Below, one piece after another: positions 13,329-37,938 of a stretch of 64,000 nucleotides of DNA. The notes below the pieces were generated by a model. It did no database searches. It saw nothing but the letters and a program-made list of their open reading frames with translations, and was not told the DNA's origin. Position 1 is the first letter of the stretch. Every line of letters begins with the position of its first letter. The position numbers and the translations under genes are program-made. The stretch comes from Anaerolineae bacterium. GTDB taxonomy: Bacteria > Chloroflexota > Anaerolineae > Aggregatilineales > UBA2796. The stretch is from positions 1 through 64,000 of the forward strand of contig JAHBVK010000033.1 of NCBI GenBank assembly GCA_019637555.1, in the 5' to 3' direction.

Positions 13329-15173
13329 TTGACCGTAACCCCAACCACCGATTCCAATGATCTCGCCATCGCTAAGCCGAGCCTGCTGACCAAGTACGAG
13401 ACGCTGCGCCGCAAGGAGTCCGAACGGCTCAACGCGCTGATCGACACCTTCAGCCGCGTCGATGGCTTGCCTACCGAGCAGATGGAGCAAGCGCGCGATG
13501 CCCTTTTCCACGCCGATCACCCTTATCTGATCGTGCTGGTGGGTGCGTTCAATACTGGCAAATCCAGCATCATCAACGCGCTGATCGGTGAGCCAGTCTT
13601 GGAGATCGGTGCGACGCCCACCACCAGCAAGATCGCCATCGTGCGGCACGGTCCCTCCTTGCAGCGATCACAAGCAGGGCAGACGGAGACGGTATTCTTC
13701 CCGCATCCGCTGCTGGAAAAGGTCAGCTTGGTCGATACGCCCGGACTCGATTCGGTGTTCAAGGGTCACGACGAAACCACCCGCAAATTCCTGCACCGCG
13801 CCGATATGGTGCTGATGGTTATGCTGGCGACTCAGGCGATGTCAGCGAAAAGCATGGAATCCCTCGCCGCGCTGCGTGCCTACGGTAAGCGCGTGATCAT
13901 CGCCATCAACCAGATCGATCTGGTCGAGCCGGAAGAACGCGAGACACTGCGCCAGTTCGTCGCTGATCAAAGCAAACAGCAGCTCGGTTTCGTGCCTGAA
14001 GTTTGGCTGATTTCCTCGCGGTTGGCGGCAGAATCGCAGCGCGAATCTCCCCGCAATGAGCAGTTGTGGCGCGATAGCGGTTTCAGCGAGTTCGATAAGT
14101 TCGTCAACCGTGCTCTCAGTGACGCCGAGCGCGTGCGTCAGAAGCTAGATACCCCGCTGCAAATCGTCCGCAATGTGATGGCGCAGGCGACGGCAACGGT
14201 ACGCGAACAGCAAGACGCGCTGGCGGAACATCGCCGTTCGGCGCAGAACGTCAACACGCAGATCGAAGCCGGATTGCGCGATCAAGCCGCCACGCTCTAC
14301 GAGACGGAGGAGGAGATCAACAAGAGCTTTGCCGAGTCGATCCGGCGCGGGCGCGAAGCGATCCACGACACCTTCCAGTGGTCACGCGGCGTCAGGTTGG
14401 CGTTCGGCGGTCTTAGCGAGATCGTCGGCATCGGGCGCTTCTTCCGCCGCTTCGGGGCGCAGACTCCCGCCAAACTCGCCTTCGAAAGCCACAAGGTCGA
14501 AGAACCACTCGCCCAAGCGCCGATCATCGCGGATCGATTGGGTCCTCGCCTCGAAGGTCGGGACGTGAAAGACGTGGACGATCTGATCGGCTACACGCGC
14601 AAGGAGATCGAGGAACTGCCTGCCTCGCTGCAAGATAACCTGATCGGCACGCTGCAAGCGCCCAGCAGCTATGATCGCAGCATCTTGCGCGGCATCCGCG
14701 ACGAGCTGATGAAGCTGGTCGATCAAGCCCGCACGGTGGAGTTCCAGCGCATTGATGACAGCGTGCGCGGTTCAATTGCGATACTGGCGATCTACGAACT
14801 GCTGGTTATCTTCGTGGGTATTCTCGGCACAGTCATCGCGGCGAGTCAGAACAACGGCAATTGGGTATTCTTCTTCTTCGGCATGATCATCCTGATGATC
14901 GCGGGCGTGCTGGTCATGCCCTTGCGCGGGATGCTGCTGGAACGCCGTTACGCGGATCGGCTGCGCGGCATCAAAGAGGAATTCACCCGCACGCTGGACA
15001 AAGCCGCCAAGGATCAGATCGCTTACGGCAAGCAGATGCGTCAGGATGCGGTTGCGCCGTTCATGCGCCTCGTCGATACGCAGCTCTCGCAGATCGACAA
15101 GCTGAAGGTAGAGCTGGAAGAACATCAGCAAGCAATCACTGCGCTGGAGAAGGAACTGAGTGGACTGCGCTAA
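13329..15173 (+). CDS. Bacterial dynamin-like GTPase (DynA/YdjA family) with a C-terminal membrane segment.
   Basis: G1 GAFNTGKSS, G3 DTPG, G4 NQID. C-terminal hydrophobic pair (AILAIYELLVIFVGILGTVIA / VFFFFGMIILMIAGVLV) and coiled-coil tail. TTG start preceded by GGAGTAGGAGG. Confidence 0.8.
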   Translation: MTVTPTTDSNDLAIAKPSLLTKYETLRRKESERLNALIDTFSRVDGLPTEQMEQARDALFHADHPYLIVLVGAFNTGKSSIINALIGEPVLEIGATPTTSKIAIVRHGPSLQRSQAGQTETVFFPHPLLEKVSLVDTPGLDSVFKGHDETTRKFLHRADMVLMVMLATQAMSAKSMESLAALRAYGKRVIIAINQIDLVEPEERETLRQFVADQSKQQLGFVPEVWLISSRLAAESQRESPRNEQLWRDSGFSEFDKFVNRALSDAERVRQKLDTPLQIVRNVMAQATATVREQQDALAEHRRSAQNVNTQIEAGLRDQAATLYETEEEINKSFAESIRRGREAIHDTFQWSRGVRLAFGGLSEIVGIGRFFRRFGAQTPAKLAFESHKVEEPLAQAPIIADRLGPRLEGRDVKDVDDLIGYTRKEIEELPASLQDNLIGTLQAPSSYDRSILRGIRDELMKLVDQARTVEFQRIDDSVRGSIAILAIYELLVIFVGILGTVIAASQNNGNWVFFFFGMIILMIAGVLVMPLRGMLLERRYADRLRGIKEEFTRTLDKAAKDQIAYGKQMRQDAVAPFMRLVDTQLSQIDKLKVELEEHQQAITALEKELSGLR

Positions 15174-16651: not shown

Positions 16652-17365
16652 ATGCCGCCTGTAGACGTAATGAAGAACATACAACTTGTCAGCACTGGTG
16701 CTGCCTACAACAAGCTAGGCTTGGTGCATCGCGTTCGCATTCCTGAAGGTGAACCGCCTGCACAGGGATTTCCCACGTTGGTGATGGTGCATGGTCACAA
16801 AGGCAACGAGGATGTAACGTGGGTATTCGCCCGCAATACTGGTGCAAACTGGCTGATCGTCACGCCGCGTGCGCCACTGCCTTCTCCCGATGGCGATGGC
16901 TACACATGGAACAGCTTCAGTGACGAAGGAAAAACCGATACGGCATCACTGGATCAATCGCTGGCGCAGTTGACCCATTTCATCACCAGCTTGCCCTCCG
17001 TCTATCCCGCTGATCTCTCGCATCTGGTGTTGCTCGGCTTTAGTCAGGGTGCGGGCATGTGCTATGCCTACACCGCCACGCAGCCGCAGCCACCGCTGAT
17101 CGGGATGGCGGCGCTCGGCGGCTACATCCCCGGACCTGTCAAGCTGCCACCATTGCATCATCTGCCGATCTTCATGTTTCATGGCAGCAAAGACGAGACG
17201 ATCCCGATCTCGCTGGCGCACAAGAATCGCGATCAACTGATCGCGGCGGGTGCTGATCTCACCTATCAGGAGGATGAGGTCGGGCATAAGGTCAGCGCCG
17301 AAGGAATGCGCCGCCTGAGTACATGGTTCGCTGAGCGCCTAGCGCAGGGAGAATCGCCACAATGA
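16652..17365 (+). CDS. Alpha/beta hydrolase, phospholipase/carboxylesterase (dienelactone-hydrolase-like) family.
   Basis: GFSQGAG nucleophile motif. Start at the ATG with a GGAG RBS, preferred over the upstream TTG. Confidence 0.7.
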   Translation: MPPVDVMKNIQLVSTGAAYNKLGLVHRVRIPEGEPPAQGFPTLVMVHGHKGNEDVTWVFARNTGANWLIVTPRAPLPSPDGDGYTWNSFSDEGKTDTASLDQSLAQLTHFITSLPSVYPADLSHLVLLGFSQGAGMCYAYTATQPQPPLIGMAALGGYIPGPVKLPPLHHLPIFMFHGSKDETIPISLAHKNRDQLIAAGADLTYQEDEVGHKVSAEGMRRLSTWFAERLAQGESPQ

Positions 17366-17922
17366 GCAGCGGACGTAGATATCCCGTTACCCCTGATGAA
17401 TTTGAGGCGTTCATCAATTTACCGGTGAATGCGAATCGCTCTTTCGAGTACATTGCTGGCGAGATCAGGGACGTGGAACCTAATCCGATTGCAGCCCAAA
17501 TCGCTGCGCGGCTTGTGGAACCGCTTGCCGCCTATCTGCGTGAGGATCGGATTGCACATCTGACCAGCGGATCGTCTGGCTTTATCGTGGCTTATGATTG
17601 CTATACGCCGGATGTGGCGGTGCTGCGAAGGGATCGGCAGGCGGAACTGGTGACCAAAGGATTCAACCCCATCGCGCCCGATCTGGCGATTGAGATCAAT
17701 TCTCCCGATAATGAGCGCGTGTTGCGGCTCAAGGTCGCCAATTATCTGGTTGCTGGCACGACGTTGTGGATCGTGCTTCCTTCCGCTAAACGTGTGGAAG
17801 TCTACACACCGGGTAAACCCGCCGCCGTCCTAGACATCAACGGCACGCTCAACCCCGGCGCGATCCTACCGAGCTTCACGTTGAACGTTAGTCAGTTATT
17901 TGAAGGACTTAAAGTAGATTGA
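17362..17922 (+). CDS. Uma2 family (DUF820) putative endonuclease.
   Basis: PDLAIEINSPDNER...VANYLVAGTTLWIVLPSAKRVEVYTP is the Uma2 signature. Confidence 0.75.
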   Translation: MSSGRRYPVTPDEFEAFINLPVNANRSFEYIAGEIRDVEPNPIAAQIAARLVEPLAAYLREDRIAHLTSGSSGFIVAYDCYTPDVAVLRRDRQAELVTKGFNPIAPDLAIEINSPDNERVLRLKVANYLVAGTTLWIVLPSAKRVEVYTPGKPAAVLDINGTLNPGAILPSFTLNVSQLFEGLKVD

Positions 17923-18079
17923 GGTTCTTTTGTTCTGAGTCTTCGATATTATGGATGCCCTCGACTATTTTCTCCAATCCTAAGCATCTTTTTGCTTAGC
18001 CGCGTAATCGGTCTCGAAACCCTCGCGATCGGTCTAAAATTGGCTATAAACCAGATTTTTGTGAGCAAAAATGCAATAT

Positions 18080-18108
18080 ATTGTTCTATTTCCTGATCTT
18101 CATATAAT
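18080..18108 (+). promoter_or_regulatory. Candidate sigma-70-type promoter for the TIR-ATPase gene.
   Basis: TTGTTC-N16-TATAAT in an AT-rich leader, about 55 nt upstream of the ATG at 18162. Confidence 0.3.
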
Positions 18109-18161
18109 TAAGTCTAGGGCATCCTGAAAAATTCAAGGAACCTGATTCTGACAGGCAGTTT

Positions 18162-20084
18162 ATGAGCCATATATTTCTCAGTTATTCGCGAGATGATGCT
18201 GATTGGATGAGCATGATCCGCACCTATTTAGAAAAATTAGGTCTCAATACTTGGGTTGATGAAAGACGATTGAATACAGGGGATGAATGGTGGCAGGTAA
18301 TCAAGAACTCAATTGAACAAGCCTGCTGCGTCATTGTCCTGCTTTCTCCAACTGCAAATACCTCGGAGTGGGTACAGAAGGAAATAGATCACGCGCTCAC
18401 TTGTGGGCGTCAGGTTTACCCTCTACTGATACGTGGTAATGCGCAAGCTGAGAGTACGATCCCGCCTGCGTTAGCAAATCTCCAGTGGACAGACATCAGA
18501 GCAGAATTTACTAGGATGGACGCTGTTGTACGAACGATTCGAGAGCGTCATGGTACAGCCTGCGGGGAGGTCAAACTTTCGACTCCTCCTGTCCTTAACG
18601 AGATTAAGGCGACAGTAGTTGCTGTCATGGGCGTTAGGGGTGGTGTCGGCAAAGGAACATTCGTTGCCTGTGCAGCCCAATTGTTAGCTGAAAAAGGGGA
18701 TGAGGTCGTCATTGTAGATTTTGATCTGGAGTCTTCGGGTGCAACCAACAAAGCAATGACCCGTCCCGGAACAGTACGTCCACCTGTCAAAACTATTTAC
18801 GATCATTTTGCCCCTTATGCTCTTAGATTTGAGAACCATCGCGGACCTGAATCTGAGCAACTATGGAACATCACGCCAACTTATTTGCAGGAACGCGGAC
18901 TTGGAAATATCTGGCTCGTCCCGGCAGCCGACACTGCGCGCGTGCGAGCAAGTTTTGAAGTAATCGCCAATATCCCAGTCCCGCGCGAGAAAACCGTGTT
19001 GAATGTCACCTATGAAGTGCTAAATCGCATTCAACGGGTAAGACCACAGGCAAAATGGATCCTTATGGATTGCGGCGCTGGTACCAATCCAATATATTCG
19101 GCAGCGTTTGTCGCAGCCCGCTATCGTTATATGGTCATATTGCCAGATAGCAGTTTTTTCAATCAGATCGCCACCATCAAAGCAGAACACGTTACCCGCT
19201 ATCCCGAAGAATCGGGCGTTGCTCAGGTAAACATTGTTGTCAATCGTATTTCTTCGGACGAACACAAGTATCAAACAGCAGTACTCAAGCCAATAGGGTT
19301 CATTCCTGAAGACCCGACGTTGCAAGCCGACGATTTTCAGCAACCAATTGATTTTGATTTAGGGTACAGCGCCGTTCTAGAAGCTATTCATAGAGCGCTG
19401 AATGCTAGTTTCGATATGGAAGATCGAAAGCGATTGCCTAAAGAAGAAAATGTTCGTTTATTGCCGTGGCTTAATCCAGTCCTGCGCAATCGCTTGGCTT
19501 CACGACTACTGAATGACAAGTTGTTCAAGAGAACTACGCTGCTGCTCTACGGCGTAACCATCGGATCTGCAGTGGTTACGGTGCTGGTAGTCGCAGCAGC
19601 ATTGATCCTCAAATTGCTGCAAAGCCTACAGCCGCTAGCTACATCCGAAATATCGGCTGTTTCCACACCAGTACAAACAGCGCCTCAAATCGATCTAGTG
19701 CTGGTACTTACCGGAATCGCCGCGACATTGGCTGGTGCGTATTTTTTGCGCGAACAACTGCGCAAGCGAGCATTATTGCGCCGCGTTGTAGTTATGGAGA
19801 ATACCGAATCCGAAATTGAGCAATATGCACTTTTGCGCAAGCTCATTCATGGTGAAATGGATATGAGTCGGGGAACGCTGCACTGGTTCAACCAGCAGGT
19901 GCAAAAGGCACAGCAAGCGGACAAAAGCGCGCGTAGTCACCAAGTAGCGAAATACGAAGCAAAGCTAACCTTCCAAGACCAGAATTCAGATATTCCCTCC
20001 GCTATTCAACTGTCGAGTGAATCATGGCGTTCACTTGATCATTTTTCTACTCAGGGGAGTATTGACGATGACGACGAGACCTGA
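18162..20084 (+). CDS. Membrane-anchored TIR domain / ParA-MinD-type P-loop ATPase fusion protein.
   Basis: N-terminal TIR (IFLSYSRDD...VIVLLSPTANTSEWVQKEIDHAL, with the conserved Glu in the SxWxxxE motif). Deviant Walker A in VMGVRGGVGKGT, followed by VVIVDFD and ILMDCGAG, as in MinD/ParA. Two predicted TM helices near residues 455-530. AT-rich codon usage. Confidence 0.8.
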   Translation: MSHIFLSYSRDDADWMSMIRTYLEKLGLNTWVDERRLNTGDEWWQVIKNSIEQACCVIVLLSPTANTSEWVQKEIDHALTCGRQVYPLLIRGNAQAESTIPPALANLQWTDIRAEFTRMDAVVRTIRERHGTACGEVKLSTPPVLNEIKATVVAVMGVRGGVGKGTFVACAAQLLAEKGDEVVIVDFDLESSGATNKAMTRPGTVRPPVKTIYDHFAPYALRFENHRGPESEQLWNITPTYLQERGLGNIWLVPAADTARVRASFEVIANIPVPREKTVLNVTYEVLNRIQRVRPQAKWILMDCGAGTNPIYSAAFVAARYRYMVILPDSSFFNQIATIKAEHVTRYPEESGVAQVNIVVNRISSDEHKYQTAVLKPIGFIPEDPTLQADDFQQPIDFDLGYSAVLEAIHRALNASFDMEDRKRLPKEENVRLLPWLNPVLRNRLASRLLNDKLFKRTTLLLYGVTIGSAVVTVLVVAAALILKLLQSLQPLATSEISAVSTPVQTAPQIDLVLVLTGIAATLAGAYFLREQLRKRALLRRVVVMENTESEIEQYALLRKLIHGEMDMSRGTLHWFNQQVQKAQQADKSARSHQVAKYEAKLTFQDQNSDIPSAIQLSSESWRSLDHFSTQGSIDDDDET

Positions 20085-21567
20085 ACCGGGACGTTTCGGC
20101 TATGCTGTTTTAATGTCTTATACTTACTTTTTGTCGATTGGTGTTTTTGGGATTATACAGTGGTTTACTGACCTCGATCTTAAGCAAGCATCCTCTAGCT
20201 ATCTGCGCACTGCCTTCAGTATCGACCAGAATTCGACAGTTTCCGTAATCATGTTCTTTGGTTGTTACATCCTCTCGGTGTTGCCTATCGGCTCGGCTGT
20301 ACAGCTGTACTATAAATACACTGGGCGTACCTATACGGGGGATCGGATTGGTTTTGCCAAGTCTGGCGGACATGACATCGCCACTTGGGCAGGATTGCTT
20401 TCTTTTGTCCTAGTCGTCTATGTTTTTGCTCGTTTCATTCCCGCTGGAATACTAGGAGTGGGACGTGTCGTTGTCATTTTCGTCGCTAGTTTTTTTCTAA
20501 GTGGTTGGCTGACGCGCACCTTGACTGGATTGCTCTACGAGGCAATGTATCGCCCACGACTTACCACCACCTTTGGTCTCTCAAGCCTACTACGTTGCCA
20601 GATACTCTATCCGACGAATTATGCACGCTGCCCAAATCCGACTTACCGTATTTTACCGATCTGTCGCTGGCATCGCATCATGGCTGAGTTCCGCAGAGAC
20701 TATCAAATAGCTCCATGGGCTGCTCATGTAATGATGTATCTAGCTGGAAGCAGCTTCTTTGCCGTCATATTCTGTTCATACCAATTTTCCGTTACGGTAG
20801 ATGGGCGCTGGTTACTACCGATAGTGGCTTCAACGGGCATGACATTTGCTACTTTTGCTGACTCGGTGATGGCGCGGAATTATCCACTATCGCAATACGC
20901 GCTGTGGGCAAAAATGCTGTCGACAGGAATACTACTGGTGGCGATTGGGGCAGCTATCCTTGCATTCTATGCAGTTTTAGCGCCAGATGCGACACGCGCT
21001 TTTGTCCAGCAACTCACGACGGATGAACGCTTGATCGATTGGTCACCTGCTCTCATAGGCATTATTGGTGGCTTCGGCTTTGGAATTTACGGGCGCATGT
21101 TCTTACGGCGTGTCCTATTCATCCGTAATCGCTTTGCCAATTGGGGAGTGTATGGAGTTCAATTGGGTCTAATTGGCGCGGCACTACAACCGCTGTTCAT
21201 GAACCTTTCCCCTATCAGTCCGCAGAATTCGCCAGACTTCTGGACGCCAATATTGGGCGACTCAAACCTCTTACCCATTGGTATCGTCTGGTTTATTGCC
21301 TTCAACATTTGCGAAATCATCAACGTGCGGGCGCGACGTGCCGAACTTACTGACGCGGAATTTAAACGTACGTTTGAAATATCTTATGGAGCGTGTATTC
21401 TGCCTGCCGTATTAGGTTTGTTCGCTGCCCGTTATCTTATGATTTGGCTGACCCTCAGTGGCGTTGTCATACTAGGGGCGATTTCGATTGCAATTGCTAT
21501 ACCGCTGTGCATGGCAACGACTCGTTGGGTAATCAACTGGGGACGAACCCCGCCCTTAGCCCGTTAA
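20066..21567 (+). CDS. Polytopic integral membrane protein of unknown function (about 10-12 TM), translationally coupled to the TIR-ATPase gene.
   Basis: ATG (MTTRPEP) overlaps the upstream stop by 19 nt. Multiple hydrophobic helices. No recognisable family. Same low-GC composition. Confidence 0.65.
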
Positions 21568-21751
21568 GCGCAAGCAACTTTGAGACATACTACAAACCAT
21601 TACCCAATTACGATTGTTTGCTTTTGCTTGGCAAAGTAGCCAAGAGTTGAGCAATCATGGTAGGTCCCCTCTAGATGCTTGGGCAAGATAACAATTTATT
21701 CTTCAATGTTGCACCTTTCCTGACTGATCAGTGTTAACTCTAAAGGCACAG

Positions 21752-21759
21752 TGTATAAT
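21752..21759 (+). promoter_or_regulatory. Candidate -10 element for acpP.
   Basis: Perfect TATAAT at 21754-21759, preceded by TG, about 60 nt upstream of acpP. GGAGG RBS before the ATG. Confidence 0.35.
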
Positions 21760-21818
21760 CGCAGGCTCTAACTTAAATTTGAGCTTGCTTATCAACCAAC
21801 CGCTGGAGGTTTCTCACA

Positions 21819-22058
21819 ATGGCAACTACTGAAGAGCGCGTACGCGACATTATCGTGGACTTGCTGGGCAAAGACCCATCCGAGGTCGTCCCCGCAGCAC
21901 GCTTCCGCGAAGATCTGGAAGCTGACTCGCTCGATCTGGTCGAACTGATCATGAAGATCGAAGAAGAGTTCGGTGGCGAGATTTCTGACGAAGAAGCGCA
22001 GAAGATCACCACCGTTGGCGATGCGATCACCTACATTGACACACGGATGCTCAAGTAA
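21819..22058 (+). CDS. acpP: Acyl carrier protein.
   Basis: 79 aa, acidic, with the phosphopantetheine attachment motif [11 protein letters not shown]. Confidence 0.9.
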
Positions 22059-22123
22059 GAGCTAGCGCAACCCGTACTGCAAAGCATTCAACTCAACTCA
22101 TCTAGGCACAGAATCGACATGAC

Positions 22124-22156
22124 AAGGGCGAGGCGCTGCTTCGCCCTTCCGTTTGC
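22124..22156 (+). terminator. Rho-independent terminator after acpP.
   Basis: Hairpin gggcgaggcgctgcttcgccc, followed by ttccgtttg. Confidence 0.5.
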
Positions 22157-22174
22157 ATCTACGTATCAGCAGAG

Positions 22175-22984
22175 ATGACTATTCCTACCATCCCGTGTGT
22201 GCTCACTATAGCCGCCTCCGATCCTAGTGGTGCGGCAGGTGTGCAAGCCGATCTCAAAACATTTGAAGCGCGGCAAGTCTACGGCTTGTCCGCGATCACC
22301 GCCCTGTCCGTGCAAAACTCAGTCTCCTTTCAAGGGCTGCGCGTGATGGAGGCGGATTTTGTGCGCCAGCAGATCGAAGCACTGGTCAGCGACATTAATA
22401 TCGCCGCCATCAAGACGGGGATGCTGCTGCGTGCCGACATTATTGAAACGGTCATCGCGGCGATCCCGCCACAACTTCCGGCAGTGATCGATCCGGTATT
22501 CGTCACGGGCGAAGGCAAACGGTTTGTGGACGATCCGGTGATCGAGGGTTACCGCCGCCAACTCTTCCCACGCGCCACGCTGATCACGCCCAATCTCCTG
22601 GAGACGGCGATTCTCGTCGGGCATCCCGTAGAGGATGTGCCTGCGATGCGCGAAGCGGCGCGACAATTGCATCAGGATGGCGCACGCGCCGTGCTGATCA
22701 AAGGCGGACATCTCGCGACCACCGATCACATGATCGATGTCCTCTACGACGGACGCGATTTTTACGAGATGGACTCACCCTATCTACCCGTCAAGAATCC
22801 GCGTGGTACGGGCTGTACTTTTGCCTCCTGCATTGCCGCCGAACTCGCCAAAGGCGCTGATCTGCTGACGGCAGCGCGAACCGCCAAAGCATATGTCGCG
22901 GCGGCATTGGAAGCGGCGCTCGATTGGCACATCGGGCATGGGCGTGGCACGCTTTTTCACGGAGTTGGGAATAAGGTGTTGTGA
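22175..22984 (+). CDS. thiD: Hydroxymethylpyrimidine/phosphomethylpyrimidine kinase.
   Basis: VLTIAASDPSGAAGVQADLKTFEA and the downstream ribokinase-fold GG motifs. Confidence 0.85.
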   Translation: MTIPTIPCVLTIAASDPSGAAGVQADLKTFEARQVYGLSAITALSVQNSVSFQGLRVMEADFVRQQIEALVSDINIAAIKTGMLLRADIIETVIAAIPPQLPAVIDPVFVTGEGKRFVDDPVIEGYRRQLFPRATLITPNLLETAILVGHPVEDVPAMREAARQLHQDGARAVLIKGGHLATTDHMIDVLYDGRDFYEMDSPYLPVKNPRGTGCTFASCIAAELAKGADLLTAARTAKAYVAAALEAALDWHIGHGRGTLFHGVGNKVL

Positions 22985-22987
22985 TTC

Positions 22988-23702
22988 CGTGAACTGGGCA
23001 TTATTTCTCATCGTACTGGCTGGCGCGCTGACGCAGACGATCACTGGTAACGGTGTTGCGCTGATCGCCATGCCGCTGCTGGTGGGAATGATGACGCCTG
23101 TAGATGCAGCGGCGTTGGTCGCTACCCTCTCCTTCAGCGTACAGATCATCTTGCTGCTGCGCTACCATCGGCAGGTGCAGATCGGCAAATTGTGGCGTCT
23201 GATCACGGGCGCGGTTCTCGGTATCCCGATTGGTGTTTATCTGCTCACACGCTTAGATCGGCATCTGATCATCACGGTGATGGGCATCATTTTGGTGGGC
23301 TATTCACTGTACAGCCTGATCGCACCACGCTTGCCAGAGATCAAAAATCGGGGTTGGGCGTTCGGGTTTGGTTTTGTATCGGGTTTGCTCGGTGGCGCGT
23401 ACAACACGGGCGGTCCGCCATACGTGATCTGGGGAGTCAGTCAGGGCTGGCAATCGCGCGAGTTCAAGGGCAATATGCAATTGCTGCTGTTGTTCAATAC
23501 CAGCATCGTCGTGACCACGCACTTGCTGGCAGGACATTATCACGGTGGCATCTTGCAGAGCTATGTACAAGCCGTACCAGCGATTCTGCTCGGCACATTG
23601 ATAGGTTTTGTGCTGGATCAGCACATCAACGAAGTGCTGTTCAGGCGCTTGGTGTTAGTTGTCCTGCTGCTGATCGGCGCGAAGATGCTGATCGGGGGAT
23701 GA
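22988..23702 (+). CDS. TauE/SafE (DUF81) family sulfite/anion exporter-like membrane protein.
   Basis: Repeated 4-TM halves with Gly-rich motifs (LIAMPLLVGM, GLLGGAYNTGGPPYVIW). GTG start chosen just after the thiD stop. The longer ATG ORF would overlap thiD. Confidence 0.65.
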
Positions 23703-23831: not shown

Positions 23832-25370
23832 TTAGTTCAAGGTCGCGGGCGGTTCTACATCGGTTGGCGTACTACCTGCTGCCGATTGACCATTCGAGGT
23901 AACAGCCGGAGCGCTGGCGAGAGCACTCACTTCGTGTCCTCGCAGCGCATTGAGCAAGCTACCAACGCGTGCAACGGTTGTCGCCATATCTTCCCCGCTG
24001 AGTGCCTCGACTTTGGTGCGGAACACTTCCGCCACCTCAGGGATGTTGGTCAGTAAGTCCATCAACGTGTTGCCCGAAGACCCGTTGCCGTTGTGCCCAC
24101 CGAACTGCACGATGCGGACGTTATCGCCCAGTCCTGCCATTGCGTTAGCAATCGCTTCCATCTTCGCTACATCTGCCCGCATGATCTGTTCGATCAGGAA
24201 CTGACGCAGGTTGATCTCGCCCTCGGCGGCGCTGGCGGCTGCCAGTTCACGGCGACCTTCCGCCTCGGCAAGCAGTTTCGCCTTCTCGCCTTCTGCTTCC
24301 GCCAACTTACGCGCTTGAATAGCACTTGCCTCCGCTTTCTGACCGGCGGCTTCTGCTTCCTTCATCGCTTGCAGGGCGGCGGCATCAGCACGCCCCTTCT
24401 GCTCGGTGGCGCGGGCTTCCGCTTCGGCACGGGTGCGCGTCGCTTCAGCGTTCGCCTGTGCATTGATGGTGACGCGCTGACGTTCGGCTTCGGATTGAAT
24501 CTCGATTGCCTGACGCTGCGCTCGTGCTGGCACCAGTACTTCGGCTTCTTGTTTCTGCTCCACTGCCAGCGCGTGCAGCTTTTGTACTTCCTGTTCCGAG
24601 GTGGCGCGTGCCAAGCCGACCTTCTTTTGCACCTCCACCTCACGGATGTTCAGTGCTTCACGCTGCGCCAGAATTTCGCGCTGCGCTTCCAGCTCTGCTT
24701 GTTCCGCCTCGCGGGTTGCTCCGGCTGCCTTGACGCGGGCTTCACGTTCCGCCTCCGCCTGCGCAATCTGAGCATCGCGCTTGACGGCAGCGATCTGCGG
24801 GGCTGCCATCGCCGTCAAATAGCCCTGATCATCGGAGATTTCTTCGATGCCCATCGAGATAATTCGCACGCCCATGGCGGCGACATCATCACGCGCCAGA
24901 TCCTGCACCTTCTGCACGAACGAGTCACGATCCCGATGGATCGCTTCGACGGACATCTGACCGACGATAGCGCGGAAGTTGGCGCTTAAGGTTTCGGAGA
25001 TGATGCCGCGAATTTCCTCGCGCGATTTGTCCAGAAAAGCACGGGCAGCGGTCCGTAGCGCCGTTTCCTCTGGATCGATCTGAACCTGAGCCACCCAGTC
25101 CAGACGAATCGGCACACCGCTGACGGTGTAGACCTCATCCTTCTCCTGCTTGATGGTCATGATCGTGATATTCAGTTTCTTGAACGTTTCCAGAATGGGG
25201 ATGATGAATACACCGCCGTTGCTGATCAGACGCGCGTCTTTGCGTCCATAGACCACCATCACTTCACTGGGTGGTACGCGGTGATATTGTCTGGTGATCA
25301 GTGCCCCAACCGCGAGGATAAGGACCACGACCACGCCTACTACGACCAACAATCCAGTTCCGTCCATCAA
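23832..25370 (-). CDS. Flotillin-like SPFH/band-7 protein.
   Basis: N-terminal TM and SPFH domain, followed by a long Ala/Glu-rich coiled coil (EA repeats). Sits downstream of NfeD, as in the yuaF-floT arrangement. Confidence 0.8.
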   Translation of the reverse strand: MMDGTGLLVVVGVVVVLILAVGALITRQYHRVPPSEVMVVYGRKDARLISNGGVFIIPILETFKKLNITIMTIKQEKDEVYTVSGVPIRLDWVAQVQIDPEETALRTAARAFLDKSREEIRGIISETLSANFRAIVGQMSVEAIHRDRDSFVQKVQDLARDDVAAMGVRIISMGIEEISDDQGYLTAMAAPQIAAVKRDAQIAQAEAEREARVKAAGATREAEQAELEAQREILAQREALNIREVEVQKKVGLARATSEQEVQKLHALAVEQKQEAEVLVPARAQRQAIEIQSEAERQRVTINAQANAEATRTRAEAEARATEQKGRADAAALQAMKEAEAAGQKAEASAIQARKLAEAEGEKAKLLAEAEGRRELAAASAAEGEINLRQFLIEQIMRADVAKMEAIANAMAGLGDNVRIVQFGGHNGNGSSGNTLMDLLTNIPEVAEVFRTKVEALSGEDMATTVARVGSLLNALRGHEVSALASAPAVTSNGQSAAGSTPTDVEPPATLN

Positions 25371-25390
25371 TGTCTCTCCTTCATGAACAG

Positions 25391-25918
25391 TTAGCCACTA
25401 CTCTCGGTTCGCTTCTTCTTGACATAAAGGACACTGCTATCAGCATCCACTACTTCTATGACATCACCGCGATGCAGTTCTGCTTCGCCGACTTCTTTGA
25501 TCGCATATTTATGAATGTACTTGCCCTGTACCATCGCTTCCCCGACCATACCCGCAGGCGAGTCGATGGTTACGCGTCCGCTGTTGCCGATCAGCAGATC
25601 CCGATGATCGACTTGCGGCGATTGCTGGCGGATCACAAAACGCATCACCGTCAGTACCAAGCGCCCGATCAGCAGACCAACCGCGACGGCGATGATTAAG
25701 GTTAGGGGTAAGTTCCAGTGGGAAAGCGAGCCTAGCAGCCCGATAGCGCCGAACACCGACGCAAAAGCAGCGCCGACCAACAGCGTGAAGTCACCATCAC
25801 CGCCGTGATCACCCGCGTCGAAGCTATCTGTTTCGTTGCCGCCGAAAAACAAGCTGTAGAGGAAATAAAGCACGCCAGCCAGCGTAATCGCGGCGAAAAT
25901 GTAAGGAAGAAAATCCAT
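25391..25918 (-). CDS. NfeD-family membrane protein (short YuaF-like form).
   Basis: N-terminal TM helices plus a C-terminal OB-fold-like segment. Conserved partner upstream of flotillin. Confidence 0.7.
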   Translation of the reverse strand: MDFLPYIFAAITLAGVLYFLYSLFFGGNETDSFDAGDHGGDGDFTLLVGAAFASVFGAIGLLGSLSHWNLPLTLIIAVAVGLLIGRLVLTVMRFVIRQQSPQVDHRDLLIGNSGRVTIDSPAGMVGEAMVQGKYIHKYAIKEVGEAELHRGDVIEVVDADSSVLYVKKKRTESSG

Positions 25919-33690: not shown

Positions 33691-36600
33691 TCAGCCTACC
33701 GAGACGACCACATCATCGACCTGCCAGCCATCGGCAACCGTGCTGTTGACCGTCGAGTCAAGCTGCCATTTGAGCATCACCTCGATCTGCGCCCCCGATC
33801 CATTGGGGATGGTGTAGCTGGTTGCTACCCAATCTTGCAGCGCGAGTCCGGTGGTCAGATCAGGGCTGTTGGCATTGTGTTCGGTAGCCGCGACCTTATT
33901 CCACGTCGCGCCGCGATCCGTTGAGTACCATGCCGCCGCATGATCCGTATCGGCAATCGACCAGCGTTCACGGTAAGACACGAACGCCGTCTTGCCCGCC
34001 GGAATCTTGATCGTACCGTTGAGGATCAAGCTGCTGCGCGTCAAGTGTGTGTAACGGGTTTCCCACGCGCTAGTGCGTGCTACGTTCTCCGGCTGCGCGA
34101 TGCGGAAGTCAATGTACGGCTCACCCGTCAACGCCACCGTAGAGTGCAGGAAGCGCACTTCAACATCCACCGTACCGCTGATCGGCACACTGTAGTAGAA
34201 GATACGTCGTGCGGTAGTAGCAGTTTCCGGCGTGGTGCTGGTCGAGATGTAAGGTCTCGGCAGCACTGCGCTGGGCGTGATCACACTGCCACCAACGAGC
34301 ACCTGTGCGCCGCCTGTTGCTTCTAAGCGGAACAGATAGGTCTGGGCGGTGGTGGCGGTCAGACGGCGACGCCAGCGGATCGCGTACCACTCATCGTTGT
34401 TCAAGCCGCCTACTGTCCACGATGGGTTGCCCGGTGGGATAGGCAGATTGACATGATCAGCACCGTAGTCGAAGCTGATGTTACCGCCTTCGATCCTGCC
34501 CGGCAGGTTAGCAGTTGTCGCCAACAAGGCTGCCCAGTTGACGCTCGTACCGCCGCTCCAGTTGGCATTAGTGTGATAGAAATCGCCCACCCAACCGGAA
34601 GAAGTGACGCCTGCGCCCGGATAGCCATTGCCCGTCCATGTCGTGCTTACTGGCGACAGGGTAGTGGGATTGTACTCGGCGTAGCCCCACAGGATATTGG
34701 CTGGCGTGCCAGTCGCGGGTACTTTCCAGTCACCTTCGAGTATCCAGCGGCTCGGACCACTCATGGTATCGAAGCCGGGCGGCAGGGCATCGAAGGATTC
34801 CCACACTGGCGCAACGCGGTCAACAATATGGAAACTATCCAGATTGACGCCGTCAGCGGCAGTGGCGGTATCCATCGCCTCCAAACGGATACGTACTTTG
34901 AATGGCTGCTGTGCAGCCGTCAGATTGACGGGCACGATCACCCGCGTCCATGCCAGATTGGTGCTCAGCGAGATGGCTGCGTCAGTGGTTGCCCATTGCT
35001 GCGTCCACGTACCGCCATTTGGTTTGAAGTCTACTGCCAGCGCGTGCGTCGTCGATCCGAAGTTGTACTTCGTCCAGAAGACAATCGCCGGGTAAGAGGC
35101 GGCAGTCGTATTGATGGGTTGGATGAACTCCATTACGCTGCGTTCTGGCTTGTCATAAGGAACACCAGTACCGGGGCTATCGACCCAGCCACCCGTCGTC
35201 GTACCGCTGCTGTTGGTCTTACCGACGTTGTTCGCCCATGCCCAAGTACCACCGACATACCAGTTGTTGGCGGAGGTAGCGGCATCCATGTCTTCGATGT
35301 ACTCGGTACCTGCCGTCAAAGTGACAGGGGTTTGCACCAAGTCTTCGATGCGGAAGTCGTCAATGTAGACACCGTCGCCGGGTACGCCTGTTCCCGTCGC
35401 TTTGATGTTGAAGCGGAACTTCAGACGCGGTGCGCTGGCGATAGTTTGCGGTGGTGTTTGTGCCGCAAGTACCGATACCAGATCGATCTCAAAGCGATAC
35501 CACGCTTTATTCTCTGATCCTTCAGTAGCCTTGTTGAGCTGCCACGCTTGATTCCACGAGATACCGTCGTCGGATGAGAAGTCTAGACGAACGTTGGCAT
35601 TAGGAACTTGCCAGCGCAGCCAGAAACTGATCGTCGGCTTGGTCGAACCAGTGATGCGGATCGCAGGTATCAGTTCGGTGGTCTTGTCCACATCAACCTG
35701 ATACAAGGCACCGTTCGGGCTGTCAGTCAAGGCTGTCGGCAAGCCATGTACAGGGTCGCTACCAGCGGTCAATGCCCAGCCGTTTAGTTCCCAGTCGGTG
35801 GTACTGGTAAACGGTTCAATGAAGGGCAGCGAGCGTTCGCTCACCACATTCAGACGTACTTTAAGGTTATCGATGAACCAACCACTGGCAACGGAAGCGT
35901 CCGTATCCGCCAGCAGTCGGAAGCGAATCATGATCTGCTTACCACGCAGCACCGTACCAGCGTAGTCGGAGTCGAGACGTACTTTGACCGTCTCCCATGT
36001 GATGTTGTTGGTGCCCTGATACAAGTATGGCGTTGTACCACCCAACCGTTGCAGTGGCAGCCACGGTCCTTCAGCGATAGTGGTATCTGGCGCAGTGCCG
36101 GATTTGGTCACTTCGCTGTACTCCACCAGCACCTGATCGGTAGCTGCGGCTAGGCGCACTTGGCTATCAAATTCCAACAGCGGCAGATCACTGCCCGTTG
36201 GGATGTTGAATATTCTATCGATAGTCAGCGGGCAATCTGAACCGCCCGTGTAGCTGCTGAAGTTGACAGGTCCGTTGAGACCACCGTAGGAACCGCTCCA
36301 CCAGACACTGCGGGAACCCGTAGCGCCTTCGTTGACCACGCGCCACGTGCATTCGTTGACGTAGTTGATCTGACTTCCGGTGTTGATAACGTCAGTGAAC
36401 GGCGTAGTCGTGGTGATCGTCACTTCTTGCGGACCGTACTCGAACACACCGATGTCATCAAGATACCAGCCATCTTCTGTGTCATTGGCAGTATCGCTGA
36501 GGACACGGAAGGCGATCTCGACTTTGCCGGACGTACCTGCTCCGGTGAAGTCTTTGGTCACCGTTTCCGATCCGATTTGACCCTGCGCACCGCCTGTCGT

Positions 36601-37938
36601 CGGCTCAACGTAAGCACCCGTAATGTTTTCCAGATCGAGAACGATACGGTTCCAATTGAAGTTCGTGCCGATAGTAGTATGGACGCGCTTCCACAGCCAT
36701 GGATCGGTGCTGCCATAATCGCGGACACCGACGATCAGGCTGTCGCCAGTGTTCAGTTTCCAGCGATTCCAGAAGATCAGGCGGGGGTTATCCATCGTCG
36801 AAATGTCGTACCAGCCGCGCTGCCGCAGCGTGCACGAAGAATTAACGGAATAGTTGATACGGGAGATGCCATCCTGACTATCTGCCCACGCATTGTTGGG
36901 ACTGCGGTTGTAACCTGCTGGCGAGACGATGCTGGCGTTCGTCCACTTGCAGTCGCCGTAATCGCTGACGCGGTTGATGGTTACTTCAATGGAAGCGTTG
37001 CCACTAATATCGCTGAACAGAGCGACAACCTGATGTATGCCTGTTGTAGAGGCGGTGTAGTAGCCTAGTTTGGTGACGACACCATCTGCACTTGGTGCGG
37101 TGATGTCAGTGACGACCGGTGAGCCATCCACTTCAACGCGGAAGAACTCATTACCCGTCACGCGGATTTCCCAAACCTCACCAACGGTAAAAGGTACACC
37201 GGGGTTCAGGGGATCAGGCGGGGTGGCGGGGTCGGTCTGCGCGAGTGCGGTATAGCGGGCGCTAAAGCCATCGGAAGCAACACCCGCATAAGGTGAACCA
37301 CCGCCCCAATCGAACTTCAGATGATCCTGCAAAATCTCAGTGGCAAAAGGTGCACCTGAGAATGTCATCGGAGAATTGAAGTACTCGACATTCCACGCAA
37401 AGCGGGCGCGGCTTGGCGCAGTCACATTATCGTAGTGCCACTGCGTTTCCGTTCCCGGTTGATAGTATGTATTGATGTTGAACTGCTGATCGACGGGCGT
37501 CTGCGAAGGCACAATGTAGGTGCTCGTCGCTGTTGGCGTGTACGTCTTGGTGAACGTAGCCGTAGGCGAGCTGTAGGGAGTCCCCATCGGTGTATCGCTG
37601 GGAGCCAAGGTCGGCAGGATGACGATCTGGTTGGGTGTACGCGGAGGCGGGGTATACGATGCCACCGCCGCGATGTAAGTCCCAAGCTGCTCGACGCTCA
37701 GTGTTGGATACGGTGTCCACGTCTGCTGAAGTAGATTAATCACCGCGTTGCTGAAGATATTGCCGACAGCCGGACCAGTCAAGGCGATGATGCCGATGAT
37801 CGCCATCACCACGAATACGGCGATCAACACATACTCGACCAGCGCCTGACCGGGTTTTCGGAGCAGACCACTGATCTTGATCGCACGATTGCCGCGCTGC
37901 CTTGATGTAGCCATCTTACCTTGATTGGGACGTACCAT
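33691..37938 (-). CDS. Very large (1415 aa) extracellular protein with an Flp/TadE-type prepilin-like N-terminus.
   Basis: N-terminus RKPGQALVEYVLIAVFVVMAIIGIIAL matches the G-x-x-x-x-E-Y class-III signal of Flp/TadE pilins. The rest is Thr/Ser/Trp/Asn-rich beta-rich sequence with no obvious repeats. Confidence 0.7.
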   Translation of the reverse strand: MVRPNQGKMATSRQRGNRAIKISGLLRKPGQALVEYVLIAVFVVMAIIGIIALTGPAVGNIFSNAVINLLQQTWTPYPTLSVEQLGTYIAAVASYTPPPRTPNQIVILPTLAPSDTPMGTPYSSPTATFTKTYTPTATSTYIVPSQTPVDQQFNINTYYQPGTETQWHYDNVTAPSRARFAWNVEYFNSPMTFSGAPFATEILQDHLKFDWGGGSPYAGVASDGFSARYTALAQTDPATPPDPLNPGVPFTVGEVWEIRVTGNEFFRVEVDGSPVVTDITAPSADGVVTKLGYYTASTTGIHQVVALFSDISGNASIEVTINRVSDYGDCKWTNASIVSPAGYNRSPNNAWADSQDGISRINYSVNSSCTLRQRGWYDISTMDNPRLIFWNRWKLNTGDSLIVGVRDYGSTDPWLWKRVHTTIGTNFNWNRIVLDLENITGAYVEPTTGGAQGQIGSETVTKDFTGAGTSGKVEIAFRVLSDTANDTEDGWYLDDIGVFEYGPQEVTITTTTPFTDVINTGSQINYVNECTWRVVNEGATGSRSVWWSGSYGGLNGPVNFSSYTGGSDCPLTIDRIFNIPTGSDLPLLEFDSQVRLAAATDQVLVEYSEVTKSGTAPDTTIAEGPWLPLQRLGGTTPYLYQGTNNITWETVKVRLDSDYAGTVLRGKQIMIRFRLLADTDASVASGWFIDNLKVRLNVVSERSLPFIEPFTSTTDWELNGWALTAGSDPVHGLPTALTDSPNGALYQVDVDKTTELIPAIRITGSTKPTISFWLRWQVPNANVRLDFSSDDGISWNQAWQLNKATEGSENKAWYRFEIDLVSVLAAQTPPQTIASAPRLKFRFNIKATGTGVPGDGVYIDDFRIEDLVQTPVTLTAGTEYIEDMDAATSANNWYVGGTWAWANNVGKTNSSGTTTGGWVDSPGTGVPYDKPERSVMEFIQPINTTAASYPAIVFWTKYNFGSTTHALAVDFKPNGGTWTQQWATTDAAISLSTNLAWTRVIVPVNLTAAQQPFKVRIRLEAMDTATAADGVNLDSFHIVDRVAPVWESFDALPPGFDTMSGPSRWILEGDWKVPATGTPANILWGYAEYNPTTLSPVSTTWTGNGYPGAGVTSSGWVGDFYHTNANWSGGTSVNWAALLATTANLPGRIEGGNISFDYGADHVNLPIPPGNPSWTVGGLNNDEWYAIRWRRRLTATTAQTYLFRLEATGGAQVLVGGSVITPSAVLPRPYISTSTTPETATTARRIFYYSVPISGTVDVEVRFLHSTVALTGEPYIDFRIAQPENVARTSAWETRYTHLTRSSLILNGTIKIPAGKTAFVSYRERWSIADTDHAAAWYSTDRGATWNKVAATEHNANSPDLTTGLALQDWVATSYTIPNGSGAQIEVMLKWQLDSTVNSTVADGWQVDDVVVSVG

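Follow-up and report, generated by a model that had tools for sequence, protein, structure and literature searches.

Two overlapping genes in a 64,000-nucleotide (nt) stretch of an Anaerolineae metagenome-assembled genome (MAG; contig JAHBVK010000033.1 of GCA_019637555.1, positions 1 to 64,000; "the window" denotes this whole stretch) belong to a conserved, very rare operon family. The first, gene A, encodes a TIR domain fused to a MinD/ParA-type ATPase and a two-helix membrane hairpin, and the second, gene BC, encodes a polytopic membrane protein with a predicted cytosolic Cys3-His motif. From sequence comparisons, the pair is probably a conflict or defence module, most likely anti-phage and acting by abortive infection, with the TIR domain as its effector. 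The defence or signalling role proposed in an earlier note, made from the DNA letters alone, gains support from the conservation of the partner, from the swapping of immune effector domains and from the location of some relatives in defence islands. We give a little less than an even chance to the broader proposal that the family constitutes an undescribed class of membrane-resident immune sensor, in which a Cys3-His polytopic protein and a MinD/ParA-type switch fire interchangeable suicide effectors.

Gene A, with transmembrane helices abbreviated TM1 and TM2 and AlphaFold2 as AF2, is composed as follows:

18162..20084, + strand: gene A, an open reading frame (ORF) of 640 aa comprising TIR, MinD/ParA-type ATPase, membrane hairpin and cytosolic helical tail
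18171..18506, + strand: TIR domain, residues 4-115 (TIR_2), with the codon of the predicted catalytic Glu74 at 18381-18383
18603..19427, + strand: P-loop NTPase domain of MinD/ParA fold, residues ~148-422 (Pfam CbiA, AF2 and Foldseek)
18630-18656, + strand: P-loop GVRGGVGKG, accompanied in the protein by switch I DFD (D186, D188) and Walker B D303
19554..19745, + strand: membrane hairpin from a hydropathy scan, with TM1 at ~465-483, a short outside loop and TM2 at ~510-528
19746..20081, + strand: cytosolic C-terminal helical tail (KRALLRR..., a conserved L-x-W-L helix and the acidic end DDDDET), with conserved alignment columns after TM2

This three-part layout had been proposed in the earlier note, and all the motifs that it listed (FLSYSRDD, LLSPTANTSEWVQKEI, GVRGGVGKGT, VVIVDFD and ILMDCGAG) were found in gene A, as were the two transmembrane helices and the charged tail. 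The product is 100% identical to the NCBI entry 'TIR domain-containing protein [Anaerolineae bacterium]', in which translation starts at Met16 (P0001, 625 aa; 18162-18206 excluded), so that the first TIR β-strand (IFLSYS) is cut off; in a sister Anaerolineae MAG the gene is called from the 640-aa start. The N-terminus matched Pfam TIR_2 at residues 4-115 (E 2.1e-24, 86.8 bits versus a cut-off of 28), and the ThsB_TIR and TIR models likewise exceeded their own cut-offs. A phmmer search against the PDB returned the SARM1 TIR domain as top solved relative. The conserved glutamate noticed earlier is E74, in WVQKEI after the S-x-W motif, and it aligns with the Glu of SARM1 WVHKEI, which in SARM1 is the catalytic E642. 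Both E74 and D12 are invariant in the alignment of seven TIR-bearing relatives. An N-terminal domain of another kind had been named in advance as grounds for abandoning the defence reading; the domain found is a TIR with its conserved Glu.

The central domain matched the CbiA/MinD/ParA model at residues 153-386 (29.2 bits versus a cut-off of 25.4) and, weakly, AAA_31/BcsQ and ArsA_ATPase. In an AF2 model built on a seven-sequence alignment, only the ATPase part was confident, with a predicted local distance difference test score (pLDDT) of 80-90. Foldseek placed this part closest to archaeal MinD 1hyq (E 6e-9, template modelling score 0.69 on the target) and then to ParA, FlhG, Soj and BcsQ, in agreement with the MinD/ParA-type assignment made from the letters. 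G157, G160, G161, G163, K164, D186, D188 and D303 are invariant in the family alignment. The model also contains long helices at 453-488 and 512-546 and tail helices at 551-562, 570-608 and 620-630. Both cytosolic ends of the hairpin are flanked by basic residues, and the two-helix hairpin is kept throughout the family, with a variable loop between the helices that is short in the window.

The membrane partner is a fusion of two units that are separate genes in some relatives, a small B subunit and a C subunit with the zinc motif:

20068..21567, + strand: gene BC, encoding a 499-aa membrane protein of 12 helices
20054-20059, + strand: Shine-Dalgarno-like GGGGAG, within the end of gene A and 8 nt before the gene BC ATG
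20068..20562, + strand: B-like half, residues 1-165, four membrane helices with a conserved cytosolic loop, GDRIGFAKSGGHD
20596..20673, + strand: predicted cytosolic zinc-binding motif C177-x10-C188-x10-C199-x-W-H202 (regular-expression match at 20596)
20674..21564, + strand: C-like half, eight membrane helices with conserved polar D265, W280, R348, E416, N419 and R423

The gene A stop codon (TGA, 20082-20084) lies beyond the gene BC ATG at 20068, giving an overlap of 17 nt and a protein of 499 aa, in place of the 19 nt and 500 aa reported earlier; the 12 predicted helices fall within the previous estimate of about 10-12. Like gene A, gene BC encodes a protein with a 100% identical NCBI entry. 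That note also saw no recognisable family in the protein, which stands for Pfam, NCBIfam and PADLOC (zero matches, even at E = 1) and falls for the protein universe at large, where homologues exist in 76 clusters. A terminator-like hairpin and T-run occupies 20012-20039 on the + strand, in the last 70 nt of gene A and just ahead of the ribosome-binding site of gene BC; it could adjust the relative amounts of the two proteins, in a scan that was overall not above chance.

Using 39 homologues, AF2 modelled gene BC with a mean pLDDT of 91.2 and a predicted template modelling score of 0.82. The model runs from four helices through a short β-hairpin region to a helix starting at CxWH and eight further helices, and a Foldseek search against the PDB matched the predicted fold to no solved structure, transporters included. 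The helices of the B half span residues 20-39, 55-85, 101-122 and 130-161, and alignments show conservation of D37, Y81, D92, R93, G95, G100, D103, W107 and R133 in this half. In the partner alignment, the residues of the zinc motif are nearly invariant (C177 in 29/29 sequences, C188 in 30/30, and C199, W201 and H202 each in 30/31). Because of the basic flanks and the four preceding helices, the Cys3-His motif and the GDRIGFAKSGGHD loop are both predicted, by the positive-inside rule, to face the cytosol. Pfam revealed no extra domains in longer partner proteins.

Relatives, referred to here by locus (L) and protein (P) numbers, were gathered by genome, metagenome and viral scans. A word-indexed search with gene A gave 12 matches, among them three TIR-ATPases and three ATPases with a different N-terminus, and the same type of search with gene BC or with a 10-sequence partner profile recovered only gene BC itself and one 92% identical copy. 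An exhaustive HMMER search with gene BC found 76 representative clusters, fused and split forms together, at E <= 1e-3 among 1.84 billion proteins. At three loci (L001-L003) the TIR-ATPase gene is followed by two small genes, B (~170-180 aa, 3-4 helices, motif DRxGFxKSGGxD) and C (~330 aa, beginning with the Cys motif C-x-C-x-CxWH), which align with the N- and C-terminal halves of gene BC at 30-37% identity. Relatives without a TIR carry a C-type gene alone downstream of the ATPase, with no B-type gene. At all loci that extend past the ATPase gene (17/17, by script; ~14 distinct after merging of near-identical pairs), a Cys3-His membrane gene lies directly downstream of the ATPase-hairpin gene, and its product opens with C-x9-10-C-x10-C-x-[WYV]-H, again in 17/17. 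The reverse look-up, from partner to upstream gene, found the ATPase at L035, L037/L038 and L041. The window pair has this same constitution, namely an ATPase-hairpin gene and then a multi-helix partner with C-x10-C-x10-C-x2-H.

The family probably spans bacteria and archaea. Known plasmids, phages and viral contigs yielded no member; with the ATPase-hairpin part as tblastn query, PLSDB plasmids gave one marginal match and phages none, an outcome that speaks against a gene for partition or one of phage origin. Matches confined to the P-loop stretch were excluded from the family (L009-L012, L014-L016, L029-L033, L042 and L043), as was L013, an ordinary FlhG beside FlhA/FlhF that has neither the family hairpin nor the partner. 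Flagellar or cell-division neighbourhoods, which the earlier note had listed among findings that would speak against defence, were seen for no true member, L013 being the sole match of that sort. The 92% identical partner copy (P0014, 424 aa; L034, 3503-4777, in the sister Anaerolineae MAG) diverges locally and ends early, and may be frameshifted, either by assembly error or as a decaying copy.

The N-terminal module of gene A is exchanged among relatives, for which the following types were recorded:

TIR (Pfam TIR_2): window, L001-3, L022/23, L037/38 and L041
Caspase (Pfam Peptidase_C14; PADLOC 'caspase'; NCBIfam 'caspase, EACC1-associated type'): L008 and L019/20
Calcineurin-like phosphoesterase (Metallophos): L028, matching PADLOC PDC-S60 (E 3e-72), CBASS effector PDLC00736 (E 3e-30) and NCBIfam DS8_antiphage (E 8e-41)
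A domain of ~240 aa: P0006, with P0005 and P0007 aligning to it; NCBIfam anti-phage ProA (E 1e-21, scored on P0006 only)
AAA_22/ATPase_2 module, a second ATPase (Pfam): L021

A constant core combined with interchangeable toxic enzymes is a hallmark of prokaryotic conflict systems. A transglutaminase-like label for the L024 N-terminus was discarded, as it had sub-threshold scores only (E 0.03-0.06) and P0006 had no Pfam match at E 10; similarity to NCBIfam anti-phage ProA is the better-supported label. In L018 and L021 the hairpin loop contains a PpiC rotamase domain, and P0005 has a comparably long insert; the PpiC-bearing loop suggests an extracytoplasmic sensing or binding role in these relatives. 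The most distant partners (P0072 and P0083, 22% identity) retain the Cys motif and lie downstream of a 528-aa patatin with inserted membrane helices and no MinD domain (L039 8397-11539, L040 and L036), in pairs that look like a sister system having only the Cys3-His membrane protein in common with the family.

The arrangement suggests that the ATPase, hairpin and B/C partner together would form a sensor or switch, with the N-terminal domain as effector. On membranes, MinD/ParA proteins assemble into nucleotide-sandwich dimers and polymers; induced proximity is what activates caspases and TIR NADases, and TIRs need self-association to complete their active site. The gene A switch would be permanently anchored to the membrane by its hairpin, with the loop and Cys3-His motif of gene BC facing the ATPase side. 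Partner and hairpin might sense changes at the membrane or envelope (the entry of a phage, for example, one of its membrane proteins or lost membrane integrity), and such sensing would permit the nucleotide-bound MinD-like domains to dimerise or polymerise, as other MinD/ParA proteins do. The N-terminal domains would thereby be brought together, TIRs would assemble their active site and hydrolyse NAD+, and the infected cell would be halted; in relatives the same proximity would activate caspases. We hold this specific proximity-activation mechanism as a tentative model, rather less than evenly probable.

To our knowledge, the known prokaryotic immune systems with TIR, caspase or patatin effectors rely for their control on STAND, AAA+, cyclase or Argonaute modules. 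If the broader proposal of an immune-sensor class is correct, it would provide the first SIMIBI ATPase at the centre of immune switching. A system built on a membrane-anchored MinD/ParA-type switch with an obligate membrane partner would add a new control logic in which proximity activation runs through a cell-division-type ATPase, and possibly a new way to sense infection at the membrane. The finding also gives an orphan membrane protein family a function-bearing context. Whether dimerisation of the MinD type can control a TIR NADase could be tested cleanly in this family, and its modular effector exchange makes it easy to dissect experimentally.

The window TIR shares its TIR_2-type domain and Glu position with the TIR NADases (Thoeris ThsB, TIR-SAVED and TIR-STING of CBASS, TIR-APAZ/SPARTA and SARM1), and likely also their need for induced self-association. 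Unlike in those systems, the locus has no ThsA, SAVED, STING or Argonaute partner; its TIR instead shares one protein with a MinD-type ATPase anchored in the membrane, and this protein is coupled to the polytopic product of gene BC. Thoeris was rejected as an identification, as the ThsB model matches on the TIR only and the locus has no ThsA-like gene (SIR2/Macro/SLOG or transmembrane type). With MinD, ParA, FlhG and Soj, gene A has in common the fold and the Walker A, switch I (DxD) and Walker B residues; it differs from MinD/ParA in lacking the signature Lys of K-G-G-x-G-K-[ST], in the replacement of the amphipathic membrane-targeting helix by a two-helix transmembrane hairpin, and in the added N-terminal effector domain. 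No MinC/MinE, ParB or FlhF partner gene flanks the window pair. SIMIBI-class P-loop proteins likewise work at a membrane partner, or are tethered to one, in ArsA-ArsB, Get3-Get1/2 and the bacterial tyrosine kinases (BY-kinases, e.g., Wzc), and in BY-kinases, as in gene A, a MinD-like domain goes together with a membrane module of two helices. The domain order of gene A is reversed relative to Wzc, it has no Tyr cluster and by sequence it belongs to none of these groups.

A constant NTPase or membrane sensor core with swapped effectors, as seen here, also characterises STAND/Avs/bNACHT systems and those described by Kaur et al. 2020 (VMAP, iSTAND and EACC1-caspase). EACC1-caspase is a membrane-associated two-gene system, and MinD/ParA-like domains have been noted in conflict systems (PMC7159879). 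In the window, the central NTPase is itself MinD-type and membrane-anchored, whereas the MinD-like domains of the systems of Kaur et al. are accessory, and the role of constant partner falls to a Cys3-His protein of 8-12 helices, as opposed to the single-helix EACC1, vWA-MoxR or STAND found elsewhere. The best-scoring curated ATPase-domain models in all family members tested were NF047398 and PDC-M28B. Neither was accepted: NF047398 ('KGGVGR-motif variant AAA ATPase') scored 60.6 bits on the window protein and 50-65 bits over family members versus a cut-off of 90, and the window sequence is RGGVGK, not KGGVGR. The PDC-M28B match is partial (residues 148-257 on model positions 126-227 of 438), covering ~100/438 positions for the window and up to ~170 for relatives, and no PDC-M28A-like partner is present at the window locus. 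Searches of the literature, incomplete in coverage, returned no description of a TIR/MinD-hairpin protein with a membrane partner, and these and the database searches agree with the earlier statement that no TIR/ParA-MinD system has been described. What is undescribed here is the membrane-anchored MinD-type switch with its Cys3-His partner; NTPase-gated, effector-swapping immune logic was already known.

The earlier note had offered the membrane protein as a possible effector, and in its full form this explanation makes gene BC a killing pore or channel and the TIR-ATPase its sensor or signal generator, as in CBASS with transmembrane effectors, Pycsar and type II Thoeris. Membrane effectors are common in abortive-infection systems, conserved polar residues (D265, R348, E416, N419 and R423) fall within predicted helices of gene BC, and the two genes appear translationally coupled. 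It is the partner, however, that stays constant while the N-terminal enzymes change, and the swapped domains (caspase, CBASS-type phosphoesterase and patatin) are terminal effectors elsewhere; moreover, most of them produce no nucleotide signal, and the partner has no recognisable nucleotide-sensing domain, just the small Cys3-His motif. For the constancy of the partner against changing enzymes, a role as sensor or regulator core is more likely than one as effector, and a pore seems unlikely. A different trigger, damage or stress rather than phage specifically, is invoked if the pair serves filamentous multicellular bacteria in regulated cell death, kin discrimination or addiction; it would then resemble the conflict systems of membrane-associated EACC1-caspases and NTPases in Kaur et al. 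2020. The host belongs to a class that is commonly filamentous, the window flanks are housekeeping genes, the relatives' caspases score best to the 'EACC1-associated' type and the KGGVGR-motif variant is the closest curated ATPase family for all members; MinD/ParA-like domains do occur in EACC1-caspase/NTPase conflict systems (PMC7159879). Such a mechanism overlaps with that of a defence module, from which the trigger alone distinguishes it, but relatives adjoin restriction and Abi-like genes and one lies on a contig with capsid genes, and we judge this explanation improbable. Least probable is a housekeeping membrane machine comparable to FlhG, BcsQ, ArsA-ArsB, Get3 or BY-kinases, its membrane complex positioned or energised by the MinD/ParA-type ATPase, with the TIR as an interaction domain only. 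The MinD fold, the weak AAA_31/BcsQ matches, the glycosyltransferases that adjoin L002 and the ArsA/ArsB-like pairing of an ATPase with a polytopic membrane protein would suit it; however, a family with 76 partner clusters among 1.84 billion representatives is extremely rare and patchy, the catalytic Glu is retained in the TIR, toxic-type enzymes are swapped at the N-terminus, the GC content is atypical and no conserved link to biosynthetic or motility genes was seen.

Several observations weigh against an anti-phage module gated by its ATPase. The flanks of the pair are mostly housekeeping (esterases, AsnC, ThiD, TauE and flotillin), its only defence-like neighbours being the Uma2/PDC-S03-like gene next to it and, 3 kb upstream, a LeoA-like dynamin, and for relatives the context was judged from the few loci with long enough flanks. 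PADLOC gives no system call for the pair. The AF2 model has a pLDDT of ~50 over the TIR part (residues 1-120), an effect of an alignment in which N-termini with and without a TIR were combined. The Walker A, described previously as deviant, departs further from the canonical form: in V-R-G-G-V-G-K-G, Arg159 takes the place of the signature Lys, a position that varies as K, R, S or D over the family, and Lys164 is followed by Gly165, not by the Mg-binding Ser/Thr. The Walker A of the window clade is atypical, with GKGV in L022/L023; nucleotide binding thus appears likely and efficient hydrolysis uncertain, and ATP hydrolysis may be weak or absent in this clade. In other conflict systems, MinD-like domains are accessory and predicted inactive (PMC7159879). 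The trigger and the direction of control (activation versus release from inhibition) are guesses.

Neighbours with defence functions occur beside some relatives. L005/L006 have next to them a methyl-directed restriction enzyme of type IV (E 7e-232), together with an Nhi/AbiO-like helicase and PDC-S07 (E 1e-44); the genes on either side of L021 encode a HerA-like ATPase, a DNA methylase and an NTPase of the nSTAND2 type. Pfam found no family in common among the genes upstream of relatives. The 43-kb contig of L004/P0006 carries capsid and cement genes and a nearby TFIIB gene; the capsid and TFIIB genes suggest that the setting is archaeal or that of a provirus, a hint that archaea or their viruses also harbour the family.

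In base composition, the module is foreign to its surroundings: the two genes and the upstream spacer have a GC content of 0.42-0.51 (mostly 0.47-0.49), as opposed to ~0.55-0.59 on either side. The spacer is the remaining feature of the operon:

17923..18161, + strand: AT-rich intergenic region, presumed to be the operon promoter region (GC 0.415 in 18000-18399 versus ~0.55 in the flanks)

One sigma-70-like match, not above chance, lies at 18148-18175, and nothing in the promoter and terminator scan exceeded the shuffled expectation. Rfam gave no match across 17000-23000, and no flanking direct or inverted repeats mark an insertion.

Directly upstream of the module, a gene for a putative endonuclease of the Uma2 family (17362-17922, + strand; PADLOC PDC-S03, E 4e-10) overlaps the preceding carboxylesterase gene by 4 nt. 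Further upstream, a dynamin-family GTPase with a C-terminal membrane segment (13329-15173, + strand) matches PADLOC LeoA (E 1e-27) and also LeoBC, with no second Leo-type gene evident beside it. Downstream, most of the gap between gene BC and thiD is filled by a 79-aa acyl carrier protein gene (21819-22058, + strand; PP-binding in the sister MAG, L034), which was missed by the ORF listing with its 80-aa minimum. On the minus strand, a flotillin/SPFH gene (Band_7, 23832-25918) is followed by a gene for a 175-aa membrane protein without Pfam match, a pair kept in the sister MAG, whose synteny is the same as that of the window. An ORF of 1415 aa occupies 33691-37938, also on the minus strand.

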